A DNA stretch of 56,561 bases from a virus (taxonomy: Duplodnaviria > Caudoviricetes): the IMG/VR virus record IMGVR_UViG_3300031539_000035, positions 1 through 56,561 of that record; one strand, given 5' to 3'. Position numbers and translations under genes: made by a program. Under the pieces are notes generated by a model. It saw nothing but the letters and a program-made list of their open reading frames with translations. It was not told the origin of the DNA and made no database searches. Every line of letters begins with the position of its first letter. Position 1 is the first letter of the stretch. Below are positions 18,372 through 40,374 of this stretch, piece by piece.

Positions 18372-18553
18372 TGTAATTTTCCTTTTGCTCATCAGTAGGG
18401 GCCTTACTGGCAGAAGTTTCGGCACTGATTGGCTACCGGCGGGGTCTCTCGGGGCTGGTATACTGATCTATGGAGAATGGCTCTTGTTCTATAACTTTGG
18501 GCGCCGATGTGAAAAGATTGTGAACTCACAAACCGGGGGGCTTGGAGGCAGGT

Positions 18554-21226
18554 ATGGCGAGCATCGTCGAGCGGCTGGAGGGAGGCCTTTCGCGCGCAGC
18601 GGGCAGGCTGCTCCCCAGCGTGCGAGCGCAGGCCGCAGAGGCTCAGGCGTTCAGGGTGGCCTTCCGCGACAAACCGTGGGAGTTTGACGCCTACAACGGC
18701 CTCCTGAGCGAACTGGATGCCGAGACTCTGGCCTTCCTAGTGGACCAGCTCCAGTACGAGGAGGTTCTGCACCTAGGAGGCGCTGGCAAGCCGTCGTCAG
18801 AGTCCGACCGGATGCGCCAGGTGGAGCGTTCCCGCTGGCAATATCGGTGGGACCCGCTCACGCGCTGGGTGGTACGACTCTGGACGTATTTTGGCTACGG
18901 GCTGAACGTGGACATCGTGCCAGACGACGAAGCGGCGGTGCCGGTCTGGGAGGAATACTGGACGGCCAAACGAAACCGGCCAGTGTTCGGGCAGCGGCGG
19001 TTGCGTTACAACTCGGACGTCCTGCTGAGGGACGGCGAGTTGTTTTTCGTGAACTTTGTGTCCGAGGTAACCGGAGAGGTGACGACGCGGCGGTTGCTCA
19101 CGGACGAGGTGACCGAGATCGTGCGGCACCCGGACGACCGGGACACGGTGCTATTCTACAAGCGGGCGATCACCAATGGGCCCATGGCGGGCCAGGCGCT
19201 CTACTATCCCGACTGGACGGCTGAGCCTGACGAGCTGGACGCTTGGTGGGAGAAGGCTATCGGCACCGCGACCGGCGCTATTCGGATGGACGTCGCCATG
19301 CCGGAGACGGGCAGAGCCTACACGACCTGTAACGTGGTGGCCGTGCAGATCAACCTTGGCACCGAGGGGCGCGGCTGGCCGCAGATGACCAGCGGCCTGA
19401 CATGGAGCAGCGCCTACGGGAAGATCCTCCAGGACCGAGCGGCGGTGGTGCGCAAGCGCGCCATGTACGATAGTAAGGTGAAGGTGAAGGGGGGCCAGCG
19501 AGCCTTGGCCTACGTACAGGGGCGCGTGCAGTCGAGCAACGTCACCCAGGGCGGCATGGAGCGCAACCCACCAGCGTCCGCCGGTTCCGACTGGCTAGAG
19601 AACGAGGCGGTGGATAGGTCGCCGATCAACATGGGGAACTCTGGCGCGCAGGAGGCCGAGCTGGACAGCACGGCCATCTTCGGCATGGCCACACTGGCCG
19701 GCGGCCTGTTCCCTCACTACGCCGGCAAGGGCGAGGCGTTCCGGCTGGCAACTGCGTGCTACAGTGATGATACTGAGGTCCTGACCGAGAACGGATGGAA
19801 GCGCTATGAGGACTATCGGCCTGGAGAGCGGATAGCAGCTTATGACCATGAACATCGCCGTATCGTGTACACGGTTCCACGGGCCATGCACCTGTACGAG
19901 TACGAGGGACCGATGGTGCACCTACGAGGACGCACCGTGGATGCGCTGGTGACTCCCAATCACCGGATGCTTGTGCTGAACGAGAATAACGAGCCCCGCT
20001 GGGAAATCGTGGAGGCGGGCCAGTTGCCCAGCCGGTTTGCCTTGCCAAGCAAGGCTCTACTGGGCAATGCGGATGGGGTCTCGCATTTTCTGTTGCCTGC
20101 TGCGGGTTATAAGCCGGCACGATTCCTGCCAATGAATCGGTGGCTCCAGTTCCTTGGATGGTGGATTGCTGAGGGCTCAGCCTATGAGAGCAAGACGGGC
20201 ATAGTGCAGACATCTCTCGTGCAGATGGCGAGCAATGTGGATGAATGTCAGGAGATAGAGCGTGTTCTGGCCGACTTGCCATTTAACTTTTGCTGCGATG
20301 TGAATGCCCATGGTATGAAGCGTTGGCGCACCTCAGAGCGAGCACTCTTTGACTGGCTGGTACAATATTGCGGGCGACTCCAACCAGAACGCAGGATACC
20401 CGAGTTCGTGTTTGGCATGGATACTTGCCAGAGCAAACTATTGGTGGACGCTCTTTGGCAAGGAGACGGCTTCAGTGATGATCGGGAGCACTATCGGGGA
20501 GCACTGACCTCCACAAGCCTGGGGTTGCTAGATGATGTGCAGCGGCTTTTGATCCTATATGGTGAATGGGGGCAGATCACCGTACAGCGAGAGGCGGGAA
20601 CCCATCCCCAATGTCCGAACAGTCTTGCTTGTTATTATCTCTATCGAGCAGACAGAGATAAACTCTCTCTAGCACGCACGAAGAATGTGACGGAGGAGCA
20701 GTATAGCGGAATGGTCTGGTGCTTCGATGCCTCACCATACGGCATGTTCATAACGAGGCGAAATGGCTATCCACTTATCGCAGGCAACAGCGCAATGGAA
20801 ACGCCGATTCGGCGTGGCTTCTCCGACTACCAGTTGACGTGGGCTGACGTGTTCCGGGATGTCTGCCAGATCGTGCTAGAGGCGGCGCAGAAGTACGGCG
20901 GGGCGTCCTTTGAGACCATTGCTTGCGACGTGAACCAGGATGCTCTCGTGAACATGGACCCGCTGGCGGTGCAGCAGGCGGCCACGGCCATCGCGGCGAT
21001 TGCGACGACCGGGGCCGTGCCGATGGACGAAGTGGAGCGGGCCGGGAATCGCGTGCTGGTGCTGGCCTTGCAGAGCCTTGGCGTGGGGGACGCGGACGAT
21101 GTGGTGAACCCGCCTGAGGAAGAGGGCGAGGGGCTGCCGCCGGTGGTTGAGCGGAACCTGATTGGCGAGGCGGCGGACCGGATCATCGCTGGTTTGGAGT
21201 TGGAGGGCAACCATGCGGAAGCGTGA
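18554..21226 (+). CDS. portal protein with LAGLIDADG intein
   Basis: Position after TerL; LLRDGELFF, GRGWP, GEAFRLATA..AMETP portal-like motifs; about 550 aa after intein removal. Confidence 0.85.
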   Translation: MASIVERLEGGLSRAAGRLLPSVRAQAAEAQAFRVAFRDKPWEFDAYNGLLSELDAETLAFLVDQLQYEEVLHLGGAGKPSSESDRMRQVERSRWQYRWDPLTRWVVRLWTYFGYGLNVDIVPDDEAAVPVWEEYWTAKRNRPVFGQRRLRYNSDVLLRDGELFFVNFVSEVTGEVTTRRLLTDEVTEIVRHPDDRDTVLFYKRAITNGPMAGQALYYPDWTAEPDELDAWWEKAIGTATGAIRMDVAMPETGRAYTTCNVVAVQINLGTEGRGWPQMTSGLTWSSAYGKILQDRAAVVRKRAMYDSKVKVKGGQRALAYVQGRVQSSNVTQGGMERNPPASAGSDWLENEAVDRSPINMGNSGAQEAELDSTAIFGMATLAGGLFPHYAGKGEAFRLATACYSDDTEVLTENGWKRYEDYRPGERIAAYDHEHRRIVYTVPRAMHLYEYEGPMVHLRGRTVDALVTPNHRMLVLNENNEPRWEIVEAGQLPSRFALPSKALLGNADGVSHFLLPAAGYKPARFLPMNRWLQFLGWWIAEGSAYESKTGIVQTSLVQMASNVDECQEIERVLADLPFNFCCDVNAHGMKRWRTSERALFDWLVQYCGRLQPERRIPEFVFGMDTCQSKLLVDALWQGDGFSDDREHYRGALTSTSLGLLDDVQRLLILYGEWGQITVQREAGTHPQCPNSLACYYLYRADRDKLSLARTKNVTEEQYSGMVWCFDASPYGMFITRRNGYPLIAGNSAMETPIRRGFSDYQLTWADVFRDVCQIVLEAAQKYGGASFETIACDVNQDALVNMDPLAVQQAATAIAAIATTGAVPMDEVERAGNRVLVLALQSLGVGDADDVVNPPEEEGEGLPPVVERNLIGEAADRIIAGLELEGNHAEA
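19757..20788 (+). mobile_element. intein (344 aa) with LAGLIDADG homing endonuclease
   Basis: Starts CYSDDTEVLTENGW; block B VTPNHRM; LAGLIDADG-like FLGWWIAEGS and LVDALWQGDG; ends VWC..RRNG..AGN followed by Ser. Confidence 0.93.
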
Positions 21227-22029
21227 TATGATGGCGCGCATCGAGGCACTTGAGCGCCGAGTGGCACAGTTAGAGGCGCAGATAGAGGCACAGCGGACAG
21301 GGCCCTATGTGGAGCCGTGGCCAGTGATTCCGACAACTGCACCAGATTATCCGCCGCCACAGACCACACGGTTCACGTGTTCTACAGTGAATACGGGCTA
21401 CGATCCGCTAACTACCACTGTTGCGCCGTATGATAAAGACTACACGTATGAGGGTATGTTCTTGGAGGATCGGGATGCCTACGCGGGCTGAGGAGGGGGG
21501 CACATGGCAAGGCTAAAGACGCTAATGGTAAGCCAGTGGTTGTGGGAGCGGCTTAACACAGAGGGCTCCGAGATTCACGTGCGCTGTGTCAAAGGGCTGC
21601 CAGCAAGGGCCGAGATGGTGAACAGTTTCTATGATGGGGATCGTGGTTGCGTATGCTTTACGTACCGGCACGAGAGCTGGCCCGACTTACAGGAAGCTGA
21701 GATAATCCAGCGCTTCACACCCGAGTTCGAGGAAGCCAAGTGACAGGAGGCTGAGCATGCCCGTCTCCCGTAAGGAGATCGAGGCTCAGATAGCGGCGCT
21801 GATCGACCTTGGCGATTCGCCCGCCGACGCGGAGGCGGCCGTGCGAGACGCCTTGACTGGTACTGGCGAGCTGACCGGTGAGGTGGACTCCAACCTACTA
21901 GAGGCGCTGAGCGAGATCATGCCGGACGATATCGCCGAGGCGCGGTTGGACTGGTACGCCAACCCGGACGTGGGGGCCGAGTTCAAGCGCCTGCTGGACG
22001 CGGCAGAGGAGTCTCGTGGCAAAGCGTAA
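21213..22029 (+). CDS. three small hypothetical genes (21213-21491, 21504-21743, 21757-22029)
   Basis: GGAGG SDs; tightly spaced. Confidence 0.6.
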
Positions 22030-23653
22030 GACGAGCATCTTGCGCGGCTACGTCTGGGCTCCCGATAGCCAGCGCTACCGGGATAGCGCCGGGCGCTACG
22101 TGGCCCGCACCCGGATCACGGCCCTCCTGGAGCGTTCGATCAACGGGCGAGAGCGACGCATCCTCGACGGCGCGCAGGCGCTCTACGATGGCAAGATCAC
22201 GCCCAAAGTTTACGCAGCGCGAACGGCTGAGTTGGTAAAGCGCCAGCACCTCCAGAACAGCGCGCTGGCTGCCGGCGGTTGGGACAGACTCACGCCAGCG
22301 GACTATGGGCGTATCGGCGGCAACCTGCGGTCCGAGTACAAGCACTTGGCCAACCTGGCGAACGGCATTGCCGATGGCACGGTGTCCACAGCACAGGCAC
22401 AGAATCGGCTGCACATGTACATGGGGAACGCGCGCAAGGAGTTTTACCAGGTCGAGCGGGCGCACTTGCCTAAACCGAAGGCGGGCATGTCGCGGCTGGA
22501 GCGAAGGCAGCTCAATCCGGCGGACTCCTGTGACGACTGCATCGGCTATGCCGCGCAAGGATGGCAGGCTGAGGGTGTATTGCCTGTGCCGGGAGAGGGG
22601 AGCCAGTGTTTCCCTGGAAGTTTATTGGTCATGGCCGAAGGCATTGTCAAAGGCTTTAAACGAGAATATATTGGTGATCTAGTCGAGATCACCACATCCA
22701 GTGGCCACAAGCTGTCCGCTACCCCGAATCACCCGATAGCGACCCCGTCTGGTTGGGTTGCTATCAGTGCTCTGCATGAAGGCAACCAAATCATCTGTGA
22801 CTTGCGAGCAAAATTGGTGACTGGGACTTATCCAAATATAGTAAACATCCCAACCCCAATTAGTGAGGTCTTTGATGCGCTTGCGTTCGCGGGCCATGTG
22901 CAAAGGATTCCCTCTTCGCCTGTGGACTTCCACGGCGATGGTCGGCATCAAGAGATCCACGTTGTATGGGCCGATGACTGCTTGCCGAACAGGATGAAGG
23001 CTCTTTGCTATGAGAGCCTCCCGGACTTGCGCTTCCCCCATGCCTATAACGGCGAAATGTGCACCACGTGTCTGATGTCCTCTGGCGATTTCAGTGTGCA
23101 TATGGGCATCCAAAAGCTCGCGGGGGCGGCGGGGGGCAAACCCTTCTTTCTCAAGGATTCTCTTGACTGTATGAGGGGAAGTGCCGTATCTCCGGCATAC
23201 GCCACGCAGGGATTGCCCGGAAGCATAGGCGTTGGCGATCTCGGCACAGGGAAGCATGGCGATTCTGGCTTTAGAACGGGCTTTGTTGATCAGAACATTT
23301 TGTCCGAACCCACGGACACGGATCCCTGCATTGAGCAATCGCCTACGGATAGTGACTCGGCAGACGCCATACCTTTTGGAGAGAGAAAGCTCGGACTCGC
23401 CATCGATATACCGCTTGACGATCTCATCAATTGGCAGAGCGATCCTGACTTTGGCGTTACTTCGATAGTCAGCGCTCACAGAATTCCTTTCGCGGGATGT
23501 GTCTACAATTTGACCACGGAACGCCACTATTATACAACGGCTGGTATCATTGTCAAAAATTGCAATGGAAATTGTCGCTGCGCTCTTGACCGAAAGGAAA
23601 CGCCGATAGCGGACGCGGGCAACATGATCGGCACGGGAGGGGCGACGGCGTGA
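22016..23653 (+). CDS. MuF/SPP1 gp7-like head morphogenesis protein with intein
   Basis: Extein CDDC..PVPGEGSQ|CNGNCRC reconstitutes the MuF Cys motif; lies between portal and protease. Confidence 0.82.
   Translation: MAKRKTSILRGYVWAPDSQRYRDSAGRYVARTRITALLERSINGRERRILDGAQALYDGKITPKVYAARTAELVKRQHLQNSALAAGGWDRLTPADYGRIGGNLRSEYKHLANLANGIADGTVSTAQAQNRLHMYMGNARKEFYQVERAHLPKPKAGMSRLERRQLNPADSCDDCIGYAAQGWQAEGVLPVPGEGSQCFPGSLLVMAEGIVKGFKREYIGDLVEITTSSGHKLSATPNHPIATPSGWVAISALHEGNQIICDLRAKLVTGTYPNIVNIPTPISEVFDALAFAGHVQRIPSSPVDFHGDGRHQEIHVVWADDCLPNRMKALCYESLPDLRFPHAYNGEMCTTCLMSSGDFSVHMGIQKLAGAAGGKPFFLKDSLDCMRGSAVSPAYATQGLPGSIGVGDLGTGKHGDSGFRTGFVDQNILSEPTDTDPCIEQSPTDSDSADAIPFGERKLGLAIDIPLDDLINWQSDPDFGVTSIVSAHRIPFAGCVYNLTTERHYYTTAGIIVKNCNGNCRCALDRKETPIADAGNMIGTGGATA
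22679..23479 (-). CDS. HTH + DUF559/Vsr-like PD-(D/E)XK endonuclease encoded antisense within the intein
   Basis: Two HTH repeats (YIDGESELSLSKRYGVCRVTIRRRL; YASGQSLRGVCRRYGTSPHTVKRIL), then E...IGPYNVDLL..IAVEVH..H..RERKRIKDLTNWGWDVYYIW; GTG 23479 preceded by AAAGGAA. Confidence 0.85.
   Translation of the reverse strand: MSADYRSNAKVRIALPIDEIVKRYIDGESELSLSKRYGVCRVTIRRRLLNAGIRVRGFGQNVLINKARSKARIAMLPCAEIANAYASGQSLRGVCRRYGTSPHTVKRILEKEGFAPRRPRELLDAHMHTEIARGHQTRGAHFAVIGMGEAQVREALIAKSLHPVRQAVIGPYNVDLLMPTIAVEVHRRRGNPLHMARERKRIKDLTNWGWDVYYIWISPSHQFCSQVTDDLVAFMQSTDSNPTRRGRYRVIRGSGQLVATGCGDLD
23529..23556 (-). promoter_or_regulatory. antisense sigma70 promoter inside the intein C-terminal motif
   Basis: Minus strand TTGACA (23556-23551), 16 nt, TATAAT (23534-23529); about 50 nt upstream of the antisense GTG. 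Confidence 0.8.
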
Positions 23654-23874
23654 GCGATAGCGTCCAGCAGTGGGACAACCTCCTGGCCCGCCTGCGCAGC
23701 GTGGCCGGCTGTCGGAACGACGGCCATATCGTCGTGCAGATCACCGTGGCATTCTGTGGCGGCGTGCCGCGTATCTGGACCGAGCCCCGCGTGGTGCGCT
23801 TGGAGCCGCGCAGCATGGGTAGCACCGTCGATCTGCTGGAGGCACTTGCCGGGAATGGACGGCTGGATAGTTGA
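23650..23874 (+). CDS. hypothetical protein
   Basis: GTGA-coupled to the MuF stop. Confidence 0.55.
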   Translation: MSDSVQQWDNLLARLRSVAGCRNDGHIVVQITVAFCGGVPRIWTEPRVVRLEPRSMGSTVDLLEALAGNGRLDS

Positions 23875-23899
23875 CAATTTGTGACATATATCGTATGAT
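23871..23899 (+). promoter_or_regulatory. sigma70 promoter
   Basis: TTGACA-17-TATGAT. Confidence 0.7.
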
Positions 23900-23924
23900 G
23901 CTCTTGTAACCTAGCGCCACCATA

Positions 23925-23969
23925 ACGGGGCGCGGCCTGCACACCAGCGGGCCGTGGCCCCGTTTTTTT
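23925..23969 (+). terminator. intrinsic terminator
   Basis: ACGGGGCGCGGCCTGC / GCGGGCCGTGGCCCCGT hairpin plus a T7 tract. Confidence 0.8.
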
Positions 23970-23980
23970 GTGCCTGAGAG

Positions 23981-24478
23981 GTGATTATGTCTATCGGATA
24001 TGGGCCGAGCGCATACGGTGAGCCGACGATTGTGGCGCGTGTGCTGGCGATCCTTCCGGCGGCGGGGGCTTGGGATGCTAACCCTGTAGAGTTCAGCGTG
24101 GCCGGTTACGACGCCATGATGCTCTATTTGACCTATGAGCCCGCGGCGGACGGCGGGGCGGTAGACTGGCAGGTGCAGTACAGCCCATATTCAGCAGATG
24201 TGGTTGGTGTACTCAGCTGGTTTGAGGAAACGGCGGAGACGGTCGCGGCGGTTGTAGCTGGGACTACTACGCTTGCGACCGTGCAGGGTGCATATTCGAG
24301 TTATGCGGAGGAAGCGGTTGCGGTTGCGGGCATCACTTATGGGCCGATCCTCCTGCACAAGCTCGGCGCGGAGCGGGTGCGTATCCGGGCACGCGAGAGC
24401 GGACTGGATGACCCAGGCGAAGGGGACGATCCGGGCGAGTGCGGTATCCTGGTCAAGCTGAGCCAGGGGGAATACTAG
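23981..24478 (+). CDS. hypothetical (possibly virion) protein
   Basis: GAGAGG SD; beta-rich acidic ORF in the head module. Confidence 0.6.
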   Translation: MIMSIGYGPSAYGEPTIVARVLAILPAAGAWDANPVEFSVAGYDAMMLYLTYEPAADGGAVDWQVQYSPYSADVVGVLSWFEETAETVAAVVAGTTTLATVQGAYSSYAEEAVAVAGITYGPILLHKLGAERVRIRARESGLDDPGEGDDPGECGILVKLSQGEY

Positions 24479-24647
24479 AATGAGGCAGGGTGCGGCGACG
24501 CGTGGCGCGACGCACTTTATATCCTCTGTGCGGAACGGGCGGCAAGTCGGCATTGCGACGCGGGAGACAACGTATCCCACAAGACATGATAACCAGCGTG
24601 GGCCGACGCGCATGAGCCCGCCGATGCCAACGTAGAGGGAGGCGGCT

Positions 24648-26180
24648 ATGCCTTGGACGGCTAAAGATGTCGAGCGACATAAGAAGGGTCTGAGCGATAA
24701 GGACAAGGCACAGTGGGTCGCCACTGCGAACAGCGTCCTCAAGACTTGTCTGGCCGATGGTGGCGAGCTGGACGAATGTGATGGGCGAGCTATCCGCATC
24801 GCCAACGCGGCGGTAGCCGAGGCCGACAAGCCGACGGCGGAGAACGTGGCTGAGGACGATATGGAGCGACCCGAGGTGCTTCCCGAGTGGGTGCCCTATG
24901 GCATATACACGTTCGTGGACCTGCACGCGCGCCGCGAGGTGGAGGCTAAGGCCCAGAACGTGCGTACCGTCACCGAGCAATTCAAGCAGATGGTAGGCAA
25001 CATTCTCGATAATTATTCGTTTGAGCCCGAGGGGATGAAAGCGGCCACCCCTCAGGAGCGCATCGCCAAGATCCGCGCCCTTCTCTCCGAGATGGAAGCC
25101 GAGCTGAACGTGGCCTTCGAGGAGCCGACCACAGAGGCCGAGCCGATTGGCGAACCGGAGGTCCTGGCCGAGGCCACGGTTGGGCGAGTGATCCGCCTGG
25201 CCGAGGGGGACAACCGGCAAGGACCCCTGACGCTCATCGCCGAGCTTATCCGTCCTGGTTGGGGCAACACGAAGGACGGCCACTACTATCCGGACGAAAC
25301 CCTGCGCGGGGACTCCATTCGCATCTGGGAAGGTACCAAGATGCACGAAGTCGACCACCGCGAGGACCAGCGCTCGAACGAGAACTGGGTGAGCACGGTG
25401 GGGCCGCATGTGGGCTACAGCGATAGCGGCGGAGCTATATTCGAGGTTGCCGTCCACGATCCGGCGTTCGCCGAGAGGGCGCGCAATCTGAAAGAGCTGG
25501 GCCTGCTGGACAAGCTCGAATGCAGCATCCTCGGTGACGGACTGGTGCGCAAGGGCTTCGAGAAAGATGGGCGCAAGGGGAAACTGGTAGAGCGATTTAC
25601 CATCGCCCGAAATGTAGACTGGGTGAGTCATGCCGGGGCCGGCGGCAGAGCCGTGGGCCTGGCGGAGAGCGGTACGCCGGATGCCCGGCAGGAGGTGAAC
25701 ATTGTGAAGGTGGATAGGGCGAAACTGTTGGAGGCACTGTCCAAGGCGCTGTTAGAGGCGAAGGACGCGCAACTGGACGAGCTGGTGCAGGAGGCCATCG
25801 CCGAGGCGGAGGTCCCCGAGACGGTTGAGTCCGTCGTGACCGAGCCGGTCGTCACGGAGCCGGTTGTCGAGCCAACCGTTGAGGCGGAGCCAGTGATCGT
25901 CACCGTGAGCGCGGAGCGGGTGCGGGAACTCTGCGCGGTGGCCAAGCTGCCCGAGGCGCTGACCGGCCTCCTGGCCGAGATCGCGTTTCCCGACGAGACG
26001 GCCGTCATCGCGCGGATCGCCGAGCAGAAGACGTGGCTCCAACAGGCTACGCGCGCGGGGAGGCCCTGGGCACTATCGGAGGGCGATCAGCCCGTGGGAC
26101 CTCAAGGTCCTCTGACCAGCGAGGAGTTCGCGGAGCGTTCCAAGGCGGTTATCACCAAGTACACGGGTCGGCAGGTATAA
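24648..26180 (+). CDS. capsid maturation protease/scaffold with ChaB-like N-terminus
   Basis: MPWT..QWVATANS..AIRIANA (ChaB-like); LIRPGWGN..YYP, DH, CSI, NVDWVSHAGAGG (protease); acidic scaffold tail. Confidence 0.75.
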   Translation: MPWTAKDVERHKKGLSDKDKAQWVATANSVLKTCLADGGELDECDGRAIRIANAAVAEADKPTAENVAEDDMERPEVLPEWVPYGIYTFVDLHARREVEAKAQNVRTVTEQFKQMVGNILDNYSFEPEGMKAATPQERIAKIRALLSEMEAELNVAFEEPTTEAEPIGEPEVLAEATVGRVIRLAEGDNRQGPLTLIAELIRPGWGNTKDGHYYPDETLRGDSIRIWEGTKMHEVDHREDQRSNENWVSTVGPHVGYSDSGGAIFEVAVHDPAFAERARNLKELGLLDKLECSILGDGLVRKGFEKDGRKGKLVERFTIARNVDWVSHAGAGGRAVGLAESGTPDARQEVNIVKVDRAKLLEALSKALLEAKDAQLDELVQEAIAEAEVPETVESVVTEPVVTEPVVEPTVEAEPVIVTVSAERVRELCAVAKLPEALTGLLAEIAFPDETAVIARIAEQKTWLQQATRAGRPWALSEGDQPVGPQGPLTSEEFAERSKAVITKYTGRQV

Positions 26181-27402: not shown

Positions 27403-28542
27403 ATGCGACGAATCGTTGGGATGCTGAGCGAGCTGCGCGCACTCCAGCTGCAGAGGCAGGGGCTGGAGAGCCGGATCGCTGAGTCAAGGGAAATGTTCAC
27501 GTACCTGGATCGTGGGTTGAACGGACTCGACCCGCAGATCATGCCCGAGCGACTGGGCGAGGTCATGGTCTCGGCGGACTTTACCTACGCCATCCAGGAG
27601 TTCGTCCAGCGCGAGATGTGGGGTCCGTACAACGCCAAGCGGTTCGCGTTCGAACCGCTGGTGAAGCCCGACACTCTGCCCAACTTCATGCAGGTCACGC
27701 GCTACCAGCAGCGAGGTAGCCTGGATGATCTGGAGTACGTGGGCGAGAAGGGGGAGGCGCGAGCGGGTTCCGTGGATGATGTTGTGAAACGTCAGTACAG
27801 GGTCTACAAGTGGGAGAAGCAGTTCGAGTTCGCGATGGAGACCCTGGTCAATGATGATATCGGTCTCTTGACCGATCAGGCGCGCAACATGGGCCAGGCG
27901 GCGCGGCGGACACTTGAGAAGTATGTGAGCCGGATGTATACCAACGCGACGACCATCGCCAGGTTGGTGCTGCTCGGGGCGCTGTACTCGACCACTGGGC
28001 GACTGACCTCCGCGCGCATTTCGACGGCGCGGATGGCCTTCAACCAGCGGGTCGATGCTGACGGAGAACCGATCTCGGCCACCATGACCTACCTGGTGTA
28101 CCATCCGGGGCTGGTCGATCAGGTGCGCACGATCCGGCAGTCTCAGTTGGTGCCCGAGCTGGCGACCAACGCGGTCAACGTCGTGGCGGGCGATTTCACC
28201 CCCATCGAGGACCCGTACATCGCTGGCGCGGCTCCGAACTTGCCATGGTACGCGTTCACCGACTGGCAGACTAGCGGGATCGTCCCGTTCGTGCTGGCCA
28301 GGCGGCAGGGCGTGCCCGCTCCCATGATCCTTCGCAAGAAGAGCGACATGGAGAGCGTGGCGACCATGCTGGGTGCAGGCGCGGACGTGGCCCCGATCAT
28401 GGGCGACTTTGCCACCGGCAACGTCGTGATCAAAGTCCACGACGAGTGGGGCACGTACATCGACACGACCGTGGGCGTCACGAACGAGGGCAACATGTTT
28501 GACGCGAACGGATGCTTCTACTCCAGCGGCACGGCGCCGTAA
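27403..28542 (+). CDS. major capsid protein (Mu gpT-like HK97 fold)
   Basis: 379 aa; SADF, LEYVGEKGE, ETLVNDDIG..MGQAARRT; position; strong SD. Confidence 0.85.
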   Translation: MRRIVGMLSELRALQLQRQGLESRIAESREMFTYLDRGLNGLDPQIMPERLGEVMVSADFTYAIQEFVQREMWGPYNAKRFAFEPLVKPDTLPNFMQVTRYQQRGSLDDLEYVGEKGEARAGSVDDVVKRQYRVYKWEKQFEFAMETLVNDDIGLLTDQARNMGQAARRTLEKYVSRMYTNATTIARLVLLGALYSTTGRLTSARISTARMAFNQRVDADGEPISATMTYLVYHPGLVDQVRTIRQSQLVPELATNAVNVVAGDFTPIEDPYIAGAAPNLPWYAFTDWQTSGIVPFVLARRQGVPAPMILRKKSDMESVATMLGAGADVAPIMGDFATGNVVIKVHDEWGTYIDTTVGVTNEGNMFDANGCFYSSGTAP

Positions 28543-28571
28543 CGTGAGAAAGCCGGACATGGCCGGATGAC

Positions 28572-28600
28572 CTGGGCTCCTGCAATGTGCAGGAGCCCAG
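28572..28600 (+). terminator. 13-bp hairpin after the MCP (stabiliser/attenuator)
   Basis: CTGGGCTCCTGCA-ATG-TGCAGGAGCCCAG; no T-tract. Confidence 0.5.
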
Positions 28601-28630
28601 CGGGGGACACAAGAAACGAGGGAGCGAGAG

Positions 28631-28897
28631 ATGGCAAGAGAAAAGAAGCCGCCGTACCGAATCATCGAGCACGGTGGTCCGGAGCACGCTGCCCTGCTGG
28701 GGCTGGTGGCGGTTGGGGACAGTTACGAACTGGCCGATCCCACGCCGTACATTCAGACGGACCCGACTGGGCGGCTGGAGTCGATCGTCACCAGGCAGCG
28801 GGTGGCGGAGTTGCAGGGCGGGTTCCCGAAGCTGCAGAGTACGGACCCGCTGAAGCCGAACTACGCGCCGCCGATCTGGCGACCCACGGACGAATAG
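28631..28897 (+). CDS. hypothetical protein
   Basis: GAGGGAG SD and ORF after the MCP. Confidence 0.6.
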   Translation: MAREKKPPYRIIEHGGPEHAALLGLVAVGDSYELADPTPYIQTDPTGRLESIVTRQRVAELQGGFPKLQSTDPLKPNYAPPIWRPTDE

Positions 28898-35336: not shown

Positions 35337-38317
35337 TGGATAGGCCAACTGGCGGGGTAGAGCGGATTGGGATGGAGGCCTATCTCGGGCTGGCCGACTT
35401 CAACAAGAACCTCTCATCCTACAATAAGAGCATTGAGGCGGCTGTATCCAAAACCGAGAAGGCGGCGCAGGCGAGCGGAAAGGCCAGCGCCGCTATAACA
35501 GGTAGGGGGGGGCTCGGCGGTGCGCTGGGCTCCCTCATTCCTGTGCTCGGCGGCGTCGGCGCTTCGCTGATATCGATAGCGGGTCCGCTACTGGCCGCCG
35601 GTACCGGGCTCTTCGCGCTGGGCAAAACCGTCGTCGAAGTGAAGGAGATGATCGCCGAGGCGCTGCCGATGGAGGGTGTGCAGAAGGCATTTTACGCTAT
35701 GGCGGCGTCGGCTGGCAGCAGTGGCCAAGAGATGCTGGCGGCGTTCCGAGTGGCCAGTGGCGGCATGATTGATGAACTGGCCCTGATGCAGCGATTCAAT
35801 AAGGCGGCGCAGCTGGTAAGCCTTGACTTTGCCGTGAACCTGCCAGAAGCGATCGGGTATCTAGGGAAAGTGAGCGCGGCGACCGGCGAGAGCATGGACT
35901 ATCTCTACAACTCTCTGATCACCGGCGTGGGCAGGCTGAGCAAGCCGATTCTCGACAACCTCATGGTGATGGTCGACTTGGAACTTGCGTACCAGGATTG
36001 GGCCGCCGCCAACGGGAAGGTCGCGGACAGCCTGACTCAGACCGAGAAGCAGGCGGCGGTCATGGCCCAGGTGATGGCCCAGCTGCGGGTAAACACGGCG
36101 GCCTTGGCCAGCCCGACCGAACTGGCCTCCGGCGCGGTGGCCGCGCTGGGCGCCGAATTCGCCAACTTGCGGCGGGACATCGGCTCCGTATTCCTGCCGG
36201 CGGTGCAGGCGGGGGCCACGGCGCTTCGGCAGATAGTCCTGCGAATCCGCGAGGCCATCGACGTTGGCGGCGAGTGGCGCGCGGGACTCGTGGAGCTGGG
36301 TGCCTGGCTCAAGGCCATTGTGGTAACAATCGGAAACTTTGGTATCAGCGTGACGGAGGGCCTTATCGGGCCACTCGGCAAGGGCTTCTCTGGGCTCATG
36401 GTTTTTCTGGGCAAGGTGGCCATGGCGGCGGCGCAGTGGGGCGCGAATATCGTTTCCGCCCTGGCGATGGGCATGGTCTCCGCCATGCGCATCGTCCTCG
36501 TTCCGGTGTTTACCTCGCTTGCCAAGCTAATGGCCTACTGGCTGGCCCCCGGTTCACCTCCGCGATTTGCCCCCGATATCTACGACTGGGGCACGGCGGC
36601 GATGGGCGAGTTCATCCGCGGCATGACCGACGCGGACTTTGGCGCGCTGAATAAGATTCAGAAGCCTCTCCAAGAAGTGCTCGACCTGTTCGCCGCTCAG
36701 GGCAGGATGGAGAAGGGCGAGGTCGGCCCGACCTACGTGTCTATCAGTAAGCGGATCATCGCCGATCTGCAGGGGACCGGCAAGGTCACTGAGGAGACGC
36801 TGGCGGCGCTTCGAGAGACGACCGGTGAATATGCGGAGGATGTGGTAGCGCTGGTGCGGGCCGAGCTGGAGTTGGCGCAAGCGACCGAGGCGGTTGAGCG
36901 CGCCGAGAAGGCTTTGGACGACGCGCGCAAGCGGCGGACGCAGACTCAGGAAGAGTTGGGCGATGCGGTCCGCGAGTACAACCGGTTACTGAGGATGGGG
37001 GCCCCAACCGAGAAGTTGGCCGGTCAACTGGCGGCGATACGGGCGGCCGAGAAGCAGGTGACGCTCGCCAAGCAGCAGGAAGCGGTTGCCGAGGCGAACG
37101 TCGAGACGGAGAGGGATGGACTGGACGCGCTAGAGGAGAGCGTGCAGGTGCGGCGCGCGGCCCTGGACGAGATGCTGGAAATGGCGCGGGCGCTCATTCC
37201 GCCCATCGAAAGCGTGGCTAAGATATTAAAGGAGGCTGCGGAAGCCAAGATAGAGATACCTGAACCCGTGTTGCCGAAGGTGGACTTTGGCGTCATGTTC
37301 GCGGGACTTAGCGGCGAAATCAATGAGCGCTCCCGCACTATCGAGTTTGAGCTGTGGAAGACCGTTCAGCGGATCACCGGATTCGGCGGGCCGCTCGATC
37401 ATCTCAAGGCGCAGATAGAACTCATGCGCCTGACCTGGCAATACCAGATGATGAAGGCAGGCGCCAGCACGGACGCCTTGGGCAAAAAGCTCGATGACTT
37501 GCGAGAGAAGTGGGATACCCTAGCCAAGGCGCTTACACTTGGGGTGCTCCCAAATCTGGCCGATGTTGGGAAGGTGATCGCGTTCCTCGCGGATATCCAG
37601 ATCGAGCAGTTGAACAAGAAGCTGATTGCAGCGGCTCAGATGGCCGATGTCGCGCGGTGGGCCTACGACCGACTGGCAGCCGCGTTTAATGCGGAAAAGG
37701 GGCCGATTAAGATGGTAGAGGCCCTGATCGGCAGGGTGGACGGCCTGAAGGCATCGCTGGAGGGGATTGTCAGTCCCGCGTTCCGGGAAGTCGTGCGGCG
37801 CGGTATCGAGATGCTGTTCGATCCCTTGGGCGCCATAATGACCTGGGCAAGCGACCTGATTGGGATGTTGTTGAAGGTGCTTGAAGTATACAACGAGTTC
37901 ACCGGCCTGAATATCCAAGTGCCCGCACTGGAGGGCTTGAGGGAGTGGTTGGGTAGGACAAAAAAGCCTCCCGTGTCCGAAGAGGAGAAGGAAGAAACGG
38001 CTCCTCGCACTGGCGGGAGTCGCATTGCGACAGGCACGAAAGACTTTATTGGCGGCCTAGCTCTCGTGGGCGAGCGCGGGCCGGAGCTGGTAGTATTGCC
38101 CAAGGGGAGTACCGTGTTCACCGCCTCGGAGACGGCGCGGATGCTGCGCCAGGACTATGCGCATCCGGACCGCTCATTGGCAGACTACGCCAGTATGCAG
38201 GCCCAGCCAAGCAAAATGGTAAACCTGACCTTCGGGGACGTGCGGATAGCGAACGACATGGACTGGATCACGTTCAAGGCCGGCGTGCATAAGGCCGTCC
38301 TGGAGGGCATAGCATGA
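35336..38317 (+). CDS. tape measure protein
   Basis: 993 aa Ala/Gly-rich helical; GVGRLSKPILDNL; C-terminal ATG..GGLALVGERGPELV. Confidence 0.92.
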   Translation: MDRPTGGVERIGMEAYLGLADFNKNLSSYNKSIEAAVSKTEKAAQASGKASAAITGRGGLGGALGSLIPVLGGVGASLISIAGPLLAAGTGLFALGKTVVEVKEMIAEALPMEGVQKAFYAMAASAGSSGQEMLAAFRVASGGMIDELALMQRFNKAAQLVSLDFAVNLPEAIGYLGKVSAATGESMDYLYNSLITGVGRLSKPILDNLMVMVDLELAYQDWAAANGKVADSLTQTEKQAAVMAQVMAQLRVNTAALASPTELASGAVAALGAEFANLRRDIGSVFLPAVQAGATALRQIVLRIREAIDVGGEWRAGLVELGAWLKAIVVTIGNFGISVTEGLIGPLGKGFSGLMVFLGKVAMAAAQWGANIVSALAMGMVSAMRIVLVPVFTSLAKLMAYWLAPGSPPRFAPDIYDWGTAAMGEFIRGMTDADFGALNKIQKPLQEVLDLFAAQGRMEKGEVGPTYVSISKRIIADLQGTGKVTEETLAALRETTGEYAEDVVALVRAELELAQATEAVERAEKALDDARKRRTQTQEELGDAVREYNRLLRMGAPTEKLAGQLAAIRAAEKQVTLAKQQEAVAEANVETERDGLDALEESVQVRRAALDEMLEMARALIPPIESVAKILKEAAEAKIEIPEPVLPKVDFGVMFAGLSGEINERSRTIEFELWKTVQRITGFGGPLDHLKAQIELMRLTWQYQMMKAGASTDALGKKLDDLREKWDTLAKALTLGVLPNLADVGKVIAFLADIQIEQLNKKLIAAAQMADVARWAYDRLAAAFNAEKGPIKMVEALIGRVDGLKASLEGIVSPAFREVVRRGIEMLFDPLGAIMTWASDLIGMLLKVLEVYNEFTGLNIQVPALEGLREWLGRTKKPPVSEEEKEETAPRTGGSRIATGTKDFIGGLALVGERGPELVVLPKGSTVFTASETARMLRQDYAHPDRSLADYASMQAQPSKMVNLTFGDVRIANDMDWITFKAGVHKAVLEGIA

Positions 38318-40374
38318 GCCGAGCCATCCTGAGAATCACAGACGGCACGAACAGCGTCGATCTGCTGAGCGGCGAGGTCGGTTTCGTCGTCTCGCGCTGG
38401 CGACCGGTACAGGCCGCGTTCAAGGGCGATGGCGTGTGGAAAGACAACCCCATGGCGGACGGTCGCCGGCTGGCCATGGTGCGGCACGACAACATCATTG
38501 ACACCTGGGACGTGCACCTTACCGACCGGAACATGGATGGCGTGATCGAGCAGGCGCAGAACCTCGACCGCCTGCTGATGCGCGCGGTAGCCTACTGGAC
38601 AACCGCCTGGCAGCCGTTGCCGGTCTACATCGTGGCGCGCGGGGCGGAGGAGACCAACACCAGGTACGCGCTCATTCACTCGTACCGGTGGACGGAGCTG
38701 GGGGACCCGACCAATCAGCCGTTCGCCACGGCGTTCGGGATGCGGGCGATGAGCGACCTGACCATCGCCGTGGAGCACGGGCCGTGGCTGGAGAGCGCGC
38801 CTGGCACCGGCGTGGCCGTGGAGGTGGGGAACGAGTACGAGATAGGGGCGCAGGCGTATCAGCGGGCGCCGACTACGGCGGACGAGGTGTACGTCGCCAA
38901 TTTCAACGCTATTGATAACCTGACGCATATCTGGGTCTACGATGCCCTGGACGGCACCTACACGAACCAGCTGGGTGTCGCGCCGCCATACAACCTGCTG
39001 CCGGATCCCGCCGAGGATGGGGACATGCTCTACTTGGGTATTGCTGGTGCAACCAGCAATCCCTTTTGCAGTGTGATCTTTGACCTGAGCCAAGAGTGGG
39101 CCATGACTGGCACCACGAGCGCTCAGTGGCAATACTATGACAATGCGGCGGCGGCATGGGTCGCTTTCGACGCGGCTAACCGATTGGACCACAAGGACCA
39201 CACGGTCACACTCACGGAGTTGGGCGTGAACGGCGTGCATTGGGAGGCGAACATCGTTCTCGCCTACATGCAGGAAGTCGCGGTAAATCTGGTGACTGGC
39301 TTCTGGATCCGGTTGGTGGTCACGACAGACGAACCACAGGTGCAAGTGCCTTATCAGCAGCATAGGGACGTGTATTCTGCGCGCAAGGCCTACGTGGAGA
39401 TCACGGACGACCAGGCTACTGGTGACATGGCGGCGCTCGCCCAGGTATACGCGCGTGAGTTGGTATATGAGACGGCTGGGGCGATCACCGGGACGTATGT
39501 GAACCGTATGCTCATCGGATTGCGGAGCACGATTCGCGGCGAGGACTTTAGCGCGTATCTGAATTGCGCGCAGACCAATAACCCGACCGGTTGCACGGTA
39601 GGGGCTGAGGACGATAGCGCCTTCGTTGCAATGCTGGACAGCCCGGTGCATGAGGCGGTGCGTTGGCAGGGTGCTATCGACCTGGACTATGAGACGCGGG
39701 TATCGTTCGCGCTCGATGCGGCTTTGGCCGCGCAGTACCTTGGCGTGTTCCGTGCGTTCGTTCGCATCATTCCGCTCAATGCCGCCGGAGTGAGTTTCCG
39801 ATTGCTGGTGCAGTCTGGCTCTGGCGCGGTAACGAGCACGATAGGGGTTTATGGTGCCTCCTATGCCGGGGCGAATTGGGGCGTGATCGACTTCGGCAAG
39901 GTCAAGATCCCGACGACGGACGTGCTTGGTGGCACGGCCGGGTTGGACGCCCTGACCATCTCTATCCAAACGTATGAGGTCGCGGGCGCGGCGGATATCT
40001 ATTTCTACGACTTGATCTTGTTGCCGTCTGACGAGTGGGCGGGCGACTTTTCCAACCAAAGTCCTCCGGCTGGCGTGAACACCGGCACGCTGAAGGACAA
40101 TATGTGGCTGTTGACGGATAGCGTTGGGAGTCCGCGCAACGATCTACGGGCGCTGCTGCTGAATACTGTGGACTCCAGCGTGCGGGGCGTGTGGCAGAAC
40201 GTGTCGCCCAGCCCGTGCGTGCTGGAGGTTGGATTGGACCAACGGCTATGGTTCTTCAGTATGCAGGTCAGCGTGGCGAACGGCGCGGTGGTCGATCTAG
40301 GTCGTTGGGAAATCCCGTTGCGGGTGCAGGTGCGGCGGCAGGCGCGGTATATGGGCATGAGAGGTGGTAGGTAG
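38314..40374 (+). CDS. distal tail / baseplate protein
   Basis: Immediately after TMP; 686 aa beta-rich. Confidence 0.65.
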   Translation: MSRAILRITDGTNSVDLLSGEVGFVVSRWRPVQAAFKGDGVWKDNPMADGRRLAMVRHDNIIDTWDVHLTDRNMDGVIEQAQNLDRLLMRAVAYWTTAWQPLPVYIVARGAEETNTRYALIHSYRWTELGDPTNQPFATAFGMRAMSDLTIAVEHGPWLESAPGTGVAVEVGNEYEIGAQAYQRAPTTADEVYVANFNAIDNLTHIWVYDALDGTYTNQLGVAPPYNLLPDPAEDGDMLYLGIAGATSNPFCSVIFDLSQEWAMTGTTSAQWQYYDNAAAAWVAFDAANRLDHKDHTVTLTELGVNGVHWEANIVLAYMQEVAVNLVTGFWIRLVVTTDEPQVQVPYQQHRDVYSARKAYVEITDDQATGDMAALAQVYARELVYETAGAITGTYVNRMLIGLRSTIRGEDFSAYLNCAQTNNPTGCTVGAEDDSAFVAMLDSPVHEAVRWQGAIDLDYETRVSFALDAALAAQYLGVFRAFVRIIPLNAAGVSFRLLVQSGSGAVTSTIGVYGASYAGANWGVIDFGKVKIPTTDVLGGTAGLDALTISIQTYEVAGAADIYFYDLILLPSDEWAGDFSNQSPPAGVNTGTLKDNMWLLTDSVGSPRNDLRALLLNTVDSSVRGVWQNVSPSPCVLEVGLDQRLWFFSMQVSVANGAVVDLGRWEIPLRVQVRRQARYMGMRGGR

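Follow-up and report, generated by a model that had tools for sequence, protein, structure and literature searches.

Several described systems approach the arrangement reported here, which we examined in IMGVR_UViG_3300031539_000035, a 56.5-kb virus record (Duplodnaviria; Caudoviricetes) analysed over its whole length of 56,561 nucleotides (the window) and holding, as a single copy, an intein in a head gene with a nuclease gene on the opposite strand. Homing endonuclease genes exist on the antisense strand of group I introns (in nuclear rDNA introns), and one Vsr-like homing endonuclease, I-Bth0305I, is reportedly characterised. Among inteins, the main text of Dassa et al. (2009, PMC2677866) describes phage-associated fractured genes, in which a free-standing endonuclease gene lies between the halves of a split intein; in half of these loci the predicted nuclease is Vsr-related, and some loci came with gene-control elements of their own. 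Inteins in the head genes of phages are also on record, in the portions of text available to us: the F protein intein of a Methylococcus capsulatus Mu-like prophage, which 'lacks a recognizable endonuclease' (PMC517821), an intein in the minor head or MuF gene of all Jersey-like Salmonella phages sequenced in one study (PMC8425127), a '900-bp intein' in the head gene of Escherichia coli phage vKMB36 (PMC11162368) and an intein in the minor head or MuF gene of a cryoconite phage (PMC7468147).

In the window, the precursor of a MuF-like head morphogenesis or minor capsid protein (545 aa; 22016..23653, plus strand) is encoded directly downstream of the portal gene and contains an intein of 318 codons (22607..23560, plus), opposite which lies a gene for a 266-aa protein (22679..23479, minus). 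We consider it very probable that the intein is mobile and that its homing endonuclease, instead of forming a domain of the intein polypeptide, is encoded by a separate gene, the homing-endonuclease gene (HEG), nested antisense in codon register with it. The plus strand encodes two HINT halves joined by about 130–200 residues that are merely kept stop-free. We also lean towards a broader reading, in which the family would be a natural and widespread case of true bidirectional coding: about 45, possibly about 100, codons would encode both a HINT lobe and an in-register Vsr-like nuclease, and the promoter, ribosome-binding site and start codon of the nuclease gene would be written as synonymous choices in the splice motifs. 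On that reading hundreds to thousands of phage lineages, with a G+C content of 40–68%, have retained the layout, which is a third way of carrying a mobility enzyme, with the nuclease expressed apart from the late structural gene.

A first-pass annotation, made from the letters of the window and their open reading frames (ORFs), had proposed the outline of this layout: an intein without an in-frame endonuclease in its middle, two helix-turn-helix (HTH) repeats and a Vsr-like nuclease on the other strand, and both strands free of stops. All three proposals agree with what we find. The minus-strand ORF is open over 22679..23527 (282 aa), with codons exactly in register with those of the 545-aa plus-strand ORF, the codon of intein residue i being, in antisense, that of nuclease residue j whenever i + j = 292. 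The HEG itself starts at GTG 23479 and ends at a TAG stop at 22681–22679.

Pfam recognises the N-terminal part of the HEG product above its cut-offs, as HTH_23 (29.1 bits, cut-off 24.6), CENP-B_N (26.8, cut-off 21.2) and HTH_7 (27.2, cut-off 23.8). The first HTH module, residues 17–50 (23330..23431, minus), carries the CENP-B_N match and helices at 17–25, 30–37 and 41–50; the second, residues 78–111 (23147..23248, minus), carries the HTH_23 and HTH_7 matches and helices at 78–86, 91–98 and 102–111. A profile built from the minus-strand product and its first six relatives matches the double-HTH protein 2lvs_A (E 1e-6, at module 1) and the endonuclease-like 3hrl_A (E 3.2e-6) in the PDB. The AlphaFold2 (AF2) model, made with 78 sequences, has a mean predicted local distance difference test (pLDDT) score of 89.3 and shows a pair of three-helix modules together with a long helix and, last, an alpha/beta domain. 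This last part, residues 144–262 (22694..23050, minus), is predicted to be a nuclease domain of the Vsr-like or DUF559-type PD-(D/E)xK kind. In VIA-align comparisons it matches Vsr itself (1cw0_A, Z 11.7, root mean square deviation (rmsd) 2.6 Å over 110 aligned residues; 1vsr, Z 10.7), the homing endonuclease I-Bth0305I (3r3p_A, Z 11.5, rmsd 2.7 Å, 91 of 97 residues aligned, 19% identity) and 3hrl (Z 10.2); two mitoribosomal chains follow at 9.4 and 9.3, and the next match is at 6.7. Foldseek, run on the model of the entire antisense protein, returned no match with E ≤0.001, the fold matches coming from the domain-level VIA-align comparison. Residues N173, D175 and E184 are invariant in 78 HEG sequences and align to the VD...VE.DG region of 3hrl; they are candidate catalytic residues. 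The first-pass annotation had counted an unconserved minus-strand ORF among the outcomes that would sink its proposal; the nuclease is conserved in homologues, these residues included. Sequence conservation and the predicted fold together indicate that the minus strand encodes a real protein that combines two HTH modules with a Vsr-like nuclease and is subject to purifying selection.

The protein family is large, with 1787 cluster representatives at E ≤1e-30, many of them with 2–5 HTH repeats; an early impression from the first six matches, that it is near-absent from protein databases, was thereby overturned. Some members vary in length. Three proteins (P0007, P0008 and P0059; 394–439 aa) carry 4–5 tandem HTH repeats ahead of the nuclease; the DNA-binding array seems to grow by repeat duplication, the sense linker presumably being lengthened too. 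Others (loci L027, L029, L033, L059 and L083; proteins P0002, P0004 and P0049) have a C-terminal extension with CHCGCG...GHN, and at those loci the ORF is 46–68 codons longer and lies opposite an intein insertion of about 45 residues just after block A. To judge from these five loci, when the antisense gene grows, the sense protein takes up the extra length as an inserted loop.

On the plus strand, the intein runs from Cys1 (22607–22609) to Lys317-Asn318, followed by Cys+1 at 23561–23563 (CFPGS...IIVKN|C), with support from the ORF, the HINT fold and an intein-less allele. Across 59 aligned inteins Cys1 is invariant, as are T39, N41, H42 and P43 of block B (T39-P-N-H42), and Asn318 is invariant in the aligned inteins as well. 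The penultimate position is variable: in 73 family members it was read by regular expression as H in 40, S in 17, A in 5, R in 4, Q in 3, K in 2 and G in 2, the A and G calls including some mis-parsed ends. Inteins without a penultimate His can still splice. The only Pfam match on the plus-strand product is Intein_splicing, and it jumps from the first residues to the last. An AF2 model made with 59 sequences is confident only at residues 1–70 and 275–318, and partly at 81–130. The confident parts form a HINT fold that superimposes on the Mycobacterium tuberculosis RecA mini-intein (2in8, Z 12.4, rmsd 1.8 Å, 106 residues) and also matches the hedgehog autoprocessing domain (both VIA-align). They correspond to an N-terminal splicing lobe (residues 1–70; 22607..22816, plus; pLDDT 86–98), with block B T-P-N-H-P at 22721–22735 and the sense frame the more conserved one, and a C-terminal lobe with blocks F and G (residues 275–318; 23429..23560, plus; pLDDT 94–97). 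Between them, residues 81–125, which contain the motif DFHGDG, reach pLDDT 60–93, and residues 136–268 (23012..23410, plus) are an open frame with pLDDT <50 and no secondary structure. The intein middle, as modelled, is thus stop-free read-through with neither an in-frame endonuclease nor a predicted structure.

The layout recurs in two sets of relatives. Set 1 comprises the best 80 of 473 relatives in viral contigs and 14 from species genomes, 94 loci in all. Because one of the search patterns for set 1 was the antisense of block B, a second scan relied on a pattern taken solely from the nuclease core, with ranking against a member of low GC, and its best 80 of 476 matches in metagenome contigs gave the 68 unique loci of set 2 (G+C 0.40–0.68). 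In set 1 the in-register frame opposite the nuclease is open across the whole match in 94 of 94 loci, within an ORF of 1–4.4 kb, and in set 2 it is open in 67 of 68, or 161 of 162 together; the other two antisense frames of set 1 contain 7.7 and 12.0 stops per gene. Within the host ORFs, intein blocks flank the nuclease on either side (C[FV]PG..., ...TPNHP..., GHVYNLQT..GWY.ANGII.HN|C). Stops in the sense frame correspond to TTA, CTA and TCA codons in the in-register nuclease gene, and these are avoided almost completely: in set 1, with 1570 Leu and 1286 Ser codons, none occurs where extein usage predicts 270.7, and set 2 has one among 2406 Leu and Ser codons, against about 386 expected (the three codons make up 17.3% of Leu and 14.7% of Ser codons in exteins). 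Such avoidance implies that read-through of the sense frame matters. The in-register frame would be the one in use because only there can sense stops be avoided by the synonymous choice of Leu and Ser codons alone.

In all, 109 deposited phage genomes contain the element, in every case under a head-morphogenesis or MuF gene, with carriers that include Salmonella Jersey-like, E. coli Kagunavirus, Gordonia, Pseudomonas and Aggregatibacter phages. Among the records examined the antisense ORF is annotated once, in Salmonella phage PK2, as an automatic 'hypothetical protein'. Single-protein scans with P0059 and P0007 found no relatives in viral contigs. Two copies are chromosomal, presumably in prophages: one on a Rhizobium sp. 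isolate scaffold (L092), where the match to the window's protein is limited to the nuclease domain, and one on the 1.15-Mb contig of a Filomicrobium metagenome-assembled genome (L085).

Which strand selection acts on can be read from substitutions, and this was a check that the first-pass annotation had called for in homologues. In 25 pairs of relatives with 70–89% nucleotide identity, we scored, for either frame, what share of the changed codons is synonymous. At intein residues 1–25 the share is 0.60 in the sense and 0.21 in the antisense frame, and at residues 292–318 it is 0.67 against 0.09, the pattern of a sense-coding sequence. The middle reverses it, with 0.19 sense against 0.49 antisense at residues 71–135 and 0.10 against 0.45 at residues 136–268. 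The closest relative of the window, L001 (gapless, 69% identical), gives the same picture by itself: of 89 codons changed within residues 136–268, the change is silent in 48 for the antisense frame and in 5 for the sense frame. These shares indicate that selection switches strand, the ends of the intein being sense-coded and its middle antisense-coded.

Between these regimes, intein residues 26–70, equivalent to HEG residues 266–222 (22682..22816, both strands), have shares of 0.42 sense and 0.36 antisense, the mark of purifying selection in both frames. Position-2 divergence is the lowest of the element here (0.061), codon tables show third positions frozen in both frames, and both models are confident, with pLDDT 86–98 for the HINT strands and 88–98 for the helix and terminal hairpin of HEG 222–266. 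Block B is the clearest instance. TPNHP is written ACC CCG AAT CAC CCG in 56–69 of 73 sequences, its antisense being R-V-I-R-G of the nuclease, where an Arg/Trp alternation corresponds to CCG/CCA for the invariant sense Pro. A second near-frozen patch (22925..22939, both strands) pairs sense D-F-H-G-D with the motif [V/I]-A-V-E-V of the nuclease's predicted catalytic core: the codons are GCC in 71 of 72, GTG in 65 of 67 and GAA in 71 of 73, and on the sense side F is conserved at 0.97, H at 0.92, G at 0.97 and D at 0.96. These comparative measures show constraint from both strands on about 45 codons around block B.

The expression signals of the HEG also lie within codons of the splice motifs. 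On the minus strand of the window, a −35 box TTGACA (23551..23556) is the antisense of the Ile-Val-Lys codons of block G, a −10 box TATAAT (23529..23534) is the antisense of Tyr-Tyr-Thr codons between blocks F and G, and the two agree with the consensus at 12 of 12 positions across a 16-nt spacer. A Shine–Dalgarno (SD)-like AAAGGAA follows at 23490–23484, 4 nt upstream of the GTG. These elements are where the first-pass annotation had placed them, and L001 has AAAGGAG and an ATG homologous to GTG 23479 at the same place, with TTGTAA-17-TATAAT at the place of the window's promoter. In the E. coli phage vB-Eco-KMB36, TTGACT-16-TATAAT stands at the same place over the same Y-Y-T ... V-K-N residues, whereas Salmonella phage PK2 has its TGCTATAAT at the Ile-Ile codons (G-I-I-A-H) of block G, which is the position enriched in set 1.

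In most relatives the start codon, too, belongs to a splice motif. The codon at the His position of block F, 20 codons before the terminal Asn in set 1, reads in antisense as ATG in 40, GTG in 19 and TTG in 4, or 63 of 74 set 1 loci, and the antisense of the block F Y-N-L-Q codons is GGAGGTTGTAGAC, an SD with an 8-nt spacer. The codons chosen fit: CTC accounts for 56 of 71 block F Leu codons, compared with 30% in exteins, and CAT for 41 of 61 His codons, compared with 34%. SD-like motifs occur at 40 of 50 loci, against 10.7–12.9 under synonymous-codon resampling. The window and L001, with Cys and Tyr in place of the His, lack this start and begin 8 codons downstream, each with its own SD.

Set 2, in which 34 unique loci have the block F start, shows the consensus TTGACA-17 nt-TATAAT-...-GGAGG-...-ATG. 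Its boxes stand at fixed positions and are perfect for TATAAT in 20 and for TTGACA in 13 of the 34; at five or more matches of six, TATAAT is found in 26 (expected 2.6–6.1), TTGACA in 19 (expected about 3) and both in 17 (expected 0.3–0.6), and none of 2000 resamplings reaches these counts with either of two codon backgrounds. There the −10 is the antisense of the Ser-Leu-Tyr codons TCA TTA TAC and the −35 that of the Leu-Ser-Ser codons just before the terminal Asn; the boxes of the window coincide in place with these to within 2 nt, over different amino acids. Thus the first-pass suggestion that a splice motif has been co-opted as a promoter gains from the relatives, and its narrower point, that the Lys codon creates TTGACA, describes the window's Ile-Val-Lys correctly but is one way among several, other members using Leu-Ser-Ser. 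The further expectation that the promoter be conserved in homologues was borne out in set 2, KMB36 and L001 and only in part in set 1, as detailed below. From codon choice, we conclude that the −35 and −10 boxes, the SD and, in most relatives, the start codon arise by synonymous choice in blocks F and G.

At the other end of the gene, a hairpin of 9 pairs with a T-rich tail surrounds the HEG stop codon (22672–22694, minus), a palindrome through which both strands read G-D-L. It is found in the window and L001 only, in L001 with two compensatory base pairs, and is possibly a terminator in the window; as a family feature a terminator at the HEG stop was rejected, the mean z over 78 loci being −0.10 against −0.16 in a control region.

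That the promoter-like hexamers are not a working promoter, the gene being silent or transcribed from elsewhere and the motifs reflecting AT-rich codon use or another constraint at the level of DNA, is in our estimate unlikely. The −10-like position differs between sets 1 and 2 and set 1 has no −35, the sigma-70 consensus may not apply in most of the hosts, and the three promoter-like sites found in 3 kb are a mild excess over the 1.3 ± 1.1 of shuffled sequence. Yet the boxes hold fixed positions far above synonymous resampling in both codon backgrounds, keep the correct spacing of 16–17 nt and are followed by an SD and a start codon; near-consensus promoters occur in phages of E. coli (KMB36) and Salmonella, where the consensus applies; and the same TTGACA is produced from different amino acids (V-K or L-S-S).

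As for mobility, intein-less alleles coexist with the intein in nature. In four of four soil metagenome runs, one contig each joins 22609 to 23565 with one added G, a removal of exactly 954 nt that leaves ...S-Q-C-D-G-N-C-R-C, and one run holds a second, more divergent intein-less form. Intein-less contigs have a depth of 5.7–13.6 and intein-bearing ones of 6.7–16.5. In the family, at least 54 of 73 insertions are at the HPN|CxC motif of MuF-like proteins and the others at the window's site or in other exteins, and the G+C of the window's intein is 0.50–0.57 against 0.62–0.66 in its flanks. Because of the intein-less alleles, the several insertion sites and the foreign G+C, the data fit an element whose movement continues. 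A tblastn search with the sense intein for short inteins that lack a nuclease gene gave none among the matches listed (60 of 124).

A cycle can be proposed on this basis. Transcription of the nuclease gene would be by host RNA polymerase, from a promoter that belongs to the gene and works apart from the late head operon; from this layout we infer that the nuclease may be made early and that its transcript may act as an antisense RNA on the head gene. The nuclease would bind through its HTH modules and cut intein-less alleles of the head gene in co-infecting phages, and repair after cleavage would copy the whole cassette. The head precursor, translated through the meaningless linker, would regain its function when the intein splices out.

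The nuclease could instead be real and expressed but serve something other than homing, as a domesticated regulator, a phage-exclusion nuclease or an inactive passenger of a fixed, immobile intein, which we regard as improbable. Such a role could account for the very large family with its frequent 2–5 HTH repeats and for a Pfam nuclease match that falls under the cut-off, and the intein's presence in all sequenced Jersey-like Salmonella phages of one study could, from what that text gives, mean fixation (PMC8425127). Against it stand the invariance of the candidate catalytic residues in 78 sequences, a proven homing endonuclease among the best fold matches, the presence/absence polymorphism at one precise site in four of four runs, and the several insertion sites and exteins of an element whose GC is unlike that of its flanks.

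Several observations weigh against a mobile, splicing intein with a separately expressed antisense nuclease. The last two residues of the window intein are Lys-Asn instead of His-Asn, Cys stands where block F usually has His (His in 61 of 76 relatives), the Intein_splicing match of 27.5 bits is under the 35.8 cut-off, and splicing competence is an assumption. No Pfam nuclease family exceeds its cut-off for the minus-strand product, the best being the restriction-endonuclease-like MTES_1575 (18.1 bits against 38.2, E 0.003). The promoter layout varies: the sole enrichment in set 1 is of a −10-like hexamer at the Ile-Ile codons (24 of 50, expected 2.9–4.1), with no conserved −35, and that position is not enriched in set 2 (8 of 64). 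As a family promoter the Ile-Ile element was therefore rejected, not being replicated in set 2, where the full TTGACA-17-TATAAT lies further downstream. A start codon at the block F position is present at only 35 of 66 set 2 loci. The window sequence was located in 7 soil or groundwater DNA runs and in no RNA run, and the intein-less joints have a shorter side of just 28–30 letters, which can mislead in metagenomes. All loci were found through the nuclease, so that inteins with a lost or broken nuclease would be missed, and the loci are mutually related, so that the resampling and Poisson figures overstate independence. Finally, a single locus of the 162 (L168, a metagenome contig, 1–1500) has a sense stop, one, just after block B, the point at which split inteins found in nature are broken; the locus may be on its way to a fractured gene, may be a pseudogene or may contain a sequencing error.

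Two open strands alone prove little in this GC-rich phage, and the significance of the layout comes from the family. Open antisense frames are weak evidence by themselves because long in-register shadow ORFs occur elsewhere in the window, opposite ordinary plus-strand genes: 624 aa at 38185–40059, 393 aa at 27484–28665 and 392 aa at 24453–25631 (all minus), with a first-position G+C of about 0.75–0.81 that is typical of the antisense of genes rich in G+C at third positions. The minus-strand ORF might accordingly be a shadow of the same kind, the real product an unrecognised in-frame intein domain and the antisense family a wrong-strand artefact of a conserved GC-rich gene, and it is to the point that the sense translation aligns over its full length to phage records at 24–28% identity and that conservation is high in some of the middle's sense motifs, DFHGDG among them. 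We nevertheless hold this to be highly improbable: changed codons in the middle are 45–49% synonymous in antisense against 10–19% in sense, the comparison with L001 gives 48 silent changes against 5, the antisense product has Pfam, PDB and fold matches and a pLDDT of 89 against <50 for the sense middle, and the layout persists at GC 0.40–0.44, where chance shadows of this length are unexpected. That the sense frame is not read through, the locus being a fractured gene whose halves are translated separately and joined by trans-splicing of a split intein, has in its favour the published layout of a free-standing Vsr-like gene between intein halves (PMC2677866, main text) and the position of the L168 stop, but is scarcely credible given a sense frame open at 161 of 162 loci, full avoidance of the codons that would close it, and no start codon or SD seen for the C-terminal half in L168.

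Around the element, the identification of the host gene as MuF, made in the first-pass annotation, is supported by its position, its C-terminal NCRC motif and the annotation of relatives (MuF-like or head morphogenesis) but not by Pfam, which has no match for the N-extein; the only match there is phrog_24776, of unknown function. The same annotation took the HEG for the only credible minus-strand gene, and this agrees with a light test in which 10 other minus-strand ORFs gave no PHROG matches. A second, conventional intein lies in the portal gene (894 aa; 18542–21226, plus), starting at about ...ATA|CYSDDTEV, with Hint_2 and LAGLIDADG_3 matches, both weak and below their cut-offs, that correspond to an in-frame endonuclease; both architectures therefore occur in one phage. 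The interval from the small ORF that follows the head gene to the ORF at 23981 holds a promoter-like TTGACA-17-TATGAT (11 of 12 positions; 23871–23899, plus) and a terminator-like hairpin (23946–23964, plus). Rfam, searched over 21800–24300 with E up to 1, gave no match.

Sense/antisense gene pairs have been proposed for early protein evolution, the Rodin–Ohno idea, and bidirectional coding of the kind proposed here, if true, would be a living counterpart of such pairs. It would likewise add a third route, beside in-frame domains and split inteins, by which an intein carries a mobility enzyme, one that would separate the timing of nuclease synthesis from that of the host protein. It would suggest that the HINT domain tolerates a long meaningless insert, and would provide a large natural data set in which two proteins and expression signals share bases on opposite strands. 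The layout would also expose a blind spot of annotation, an antisense gene hidden under a head-gene annotation, and could explain large phage inteins with no apparent endonuclease, of which the Methylococcus Mu-like prophage supplies a noted case (PMC517821). With members in culturable E. coli, Salmonella, Gordonia and Pseudomonas phages, the inferred steps are open to bench testing.

Inteins in phage MuF genes and Vsr-like homing endonucleases are both known; their overlapping antisense layout we found nowhere, and a prior description elsewhere is possible. An endonuclease gene antisense to a continuous intein was not found described in the open literature, in a search that did not target Gordonia, Pseudomonas or other cultured hosts. 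The portions available of four reports on MuF-gene inteins do not mention an antisense gene (PMC517821, PMC8425127, PMC11162368, PMC7468147), and those of three further papers do not describe an endonuclease gene antisense to an intein (PMC8966425, PMC4760082, PMC1635734). The main text of the report on fractured genes has no antisense, reverse, complementary-strand or same-strand wording, 'orientation' is never used there of the nuclease gene, and 'opposite' is used only of charges (PMC2677866).

Set beside these systems, the element shares with canonical mobile inteins such as PI-SceI and PI-PfuI a HINT fold interrupted by the mobility function at the same topological place, an insertion before the Cys of a conserved motif in an essential gene, and polymorphic presence or absence. 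Canonical inteins, however, carry LAGLIDADG or HNH domains in-frame, whereas the window's nuclease is Vsr-like, lies outside the intein polypeptide on the opposite strand and has its own promoter-like boxes, SD, start and stop, the in-frame middle being unstructured. The known MuF-gene inteins agree with it in host gene and intein size, and phage records match both strands of the element.

Fractured genes, as described in the main text of PMC2677866, are alike in that the endonuclease is a gene of its own between the N- and C-terminal intein parts. There, however, the host gene is in two ORFs, whereas here it is one continuous ORF, of 545 aa in the window and open in 161 of 162 loci, and the nuclease gene is antisense, fully overlapped by the host ORF and itself overlapping both intein parts. 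I-Bth0305I shares the nuclease fold and belongs to a phage homing element, but sits in a group I intron; the window's nuclease sits in an intein, binds DNA, as predicted, through tandem HTH modules and is 19% identical to it. The antisense endonuclease genes of group I introns offer the remaining parallel, a mobility gene that runs against its carrier and needs its own expression signals. A group I intron is untranslated and involves no dual coding; an intein carrier, in contrast, must stay an open reading frame, and hence come the avoidance of stop codons and the doubly constrained codons that mark this family.

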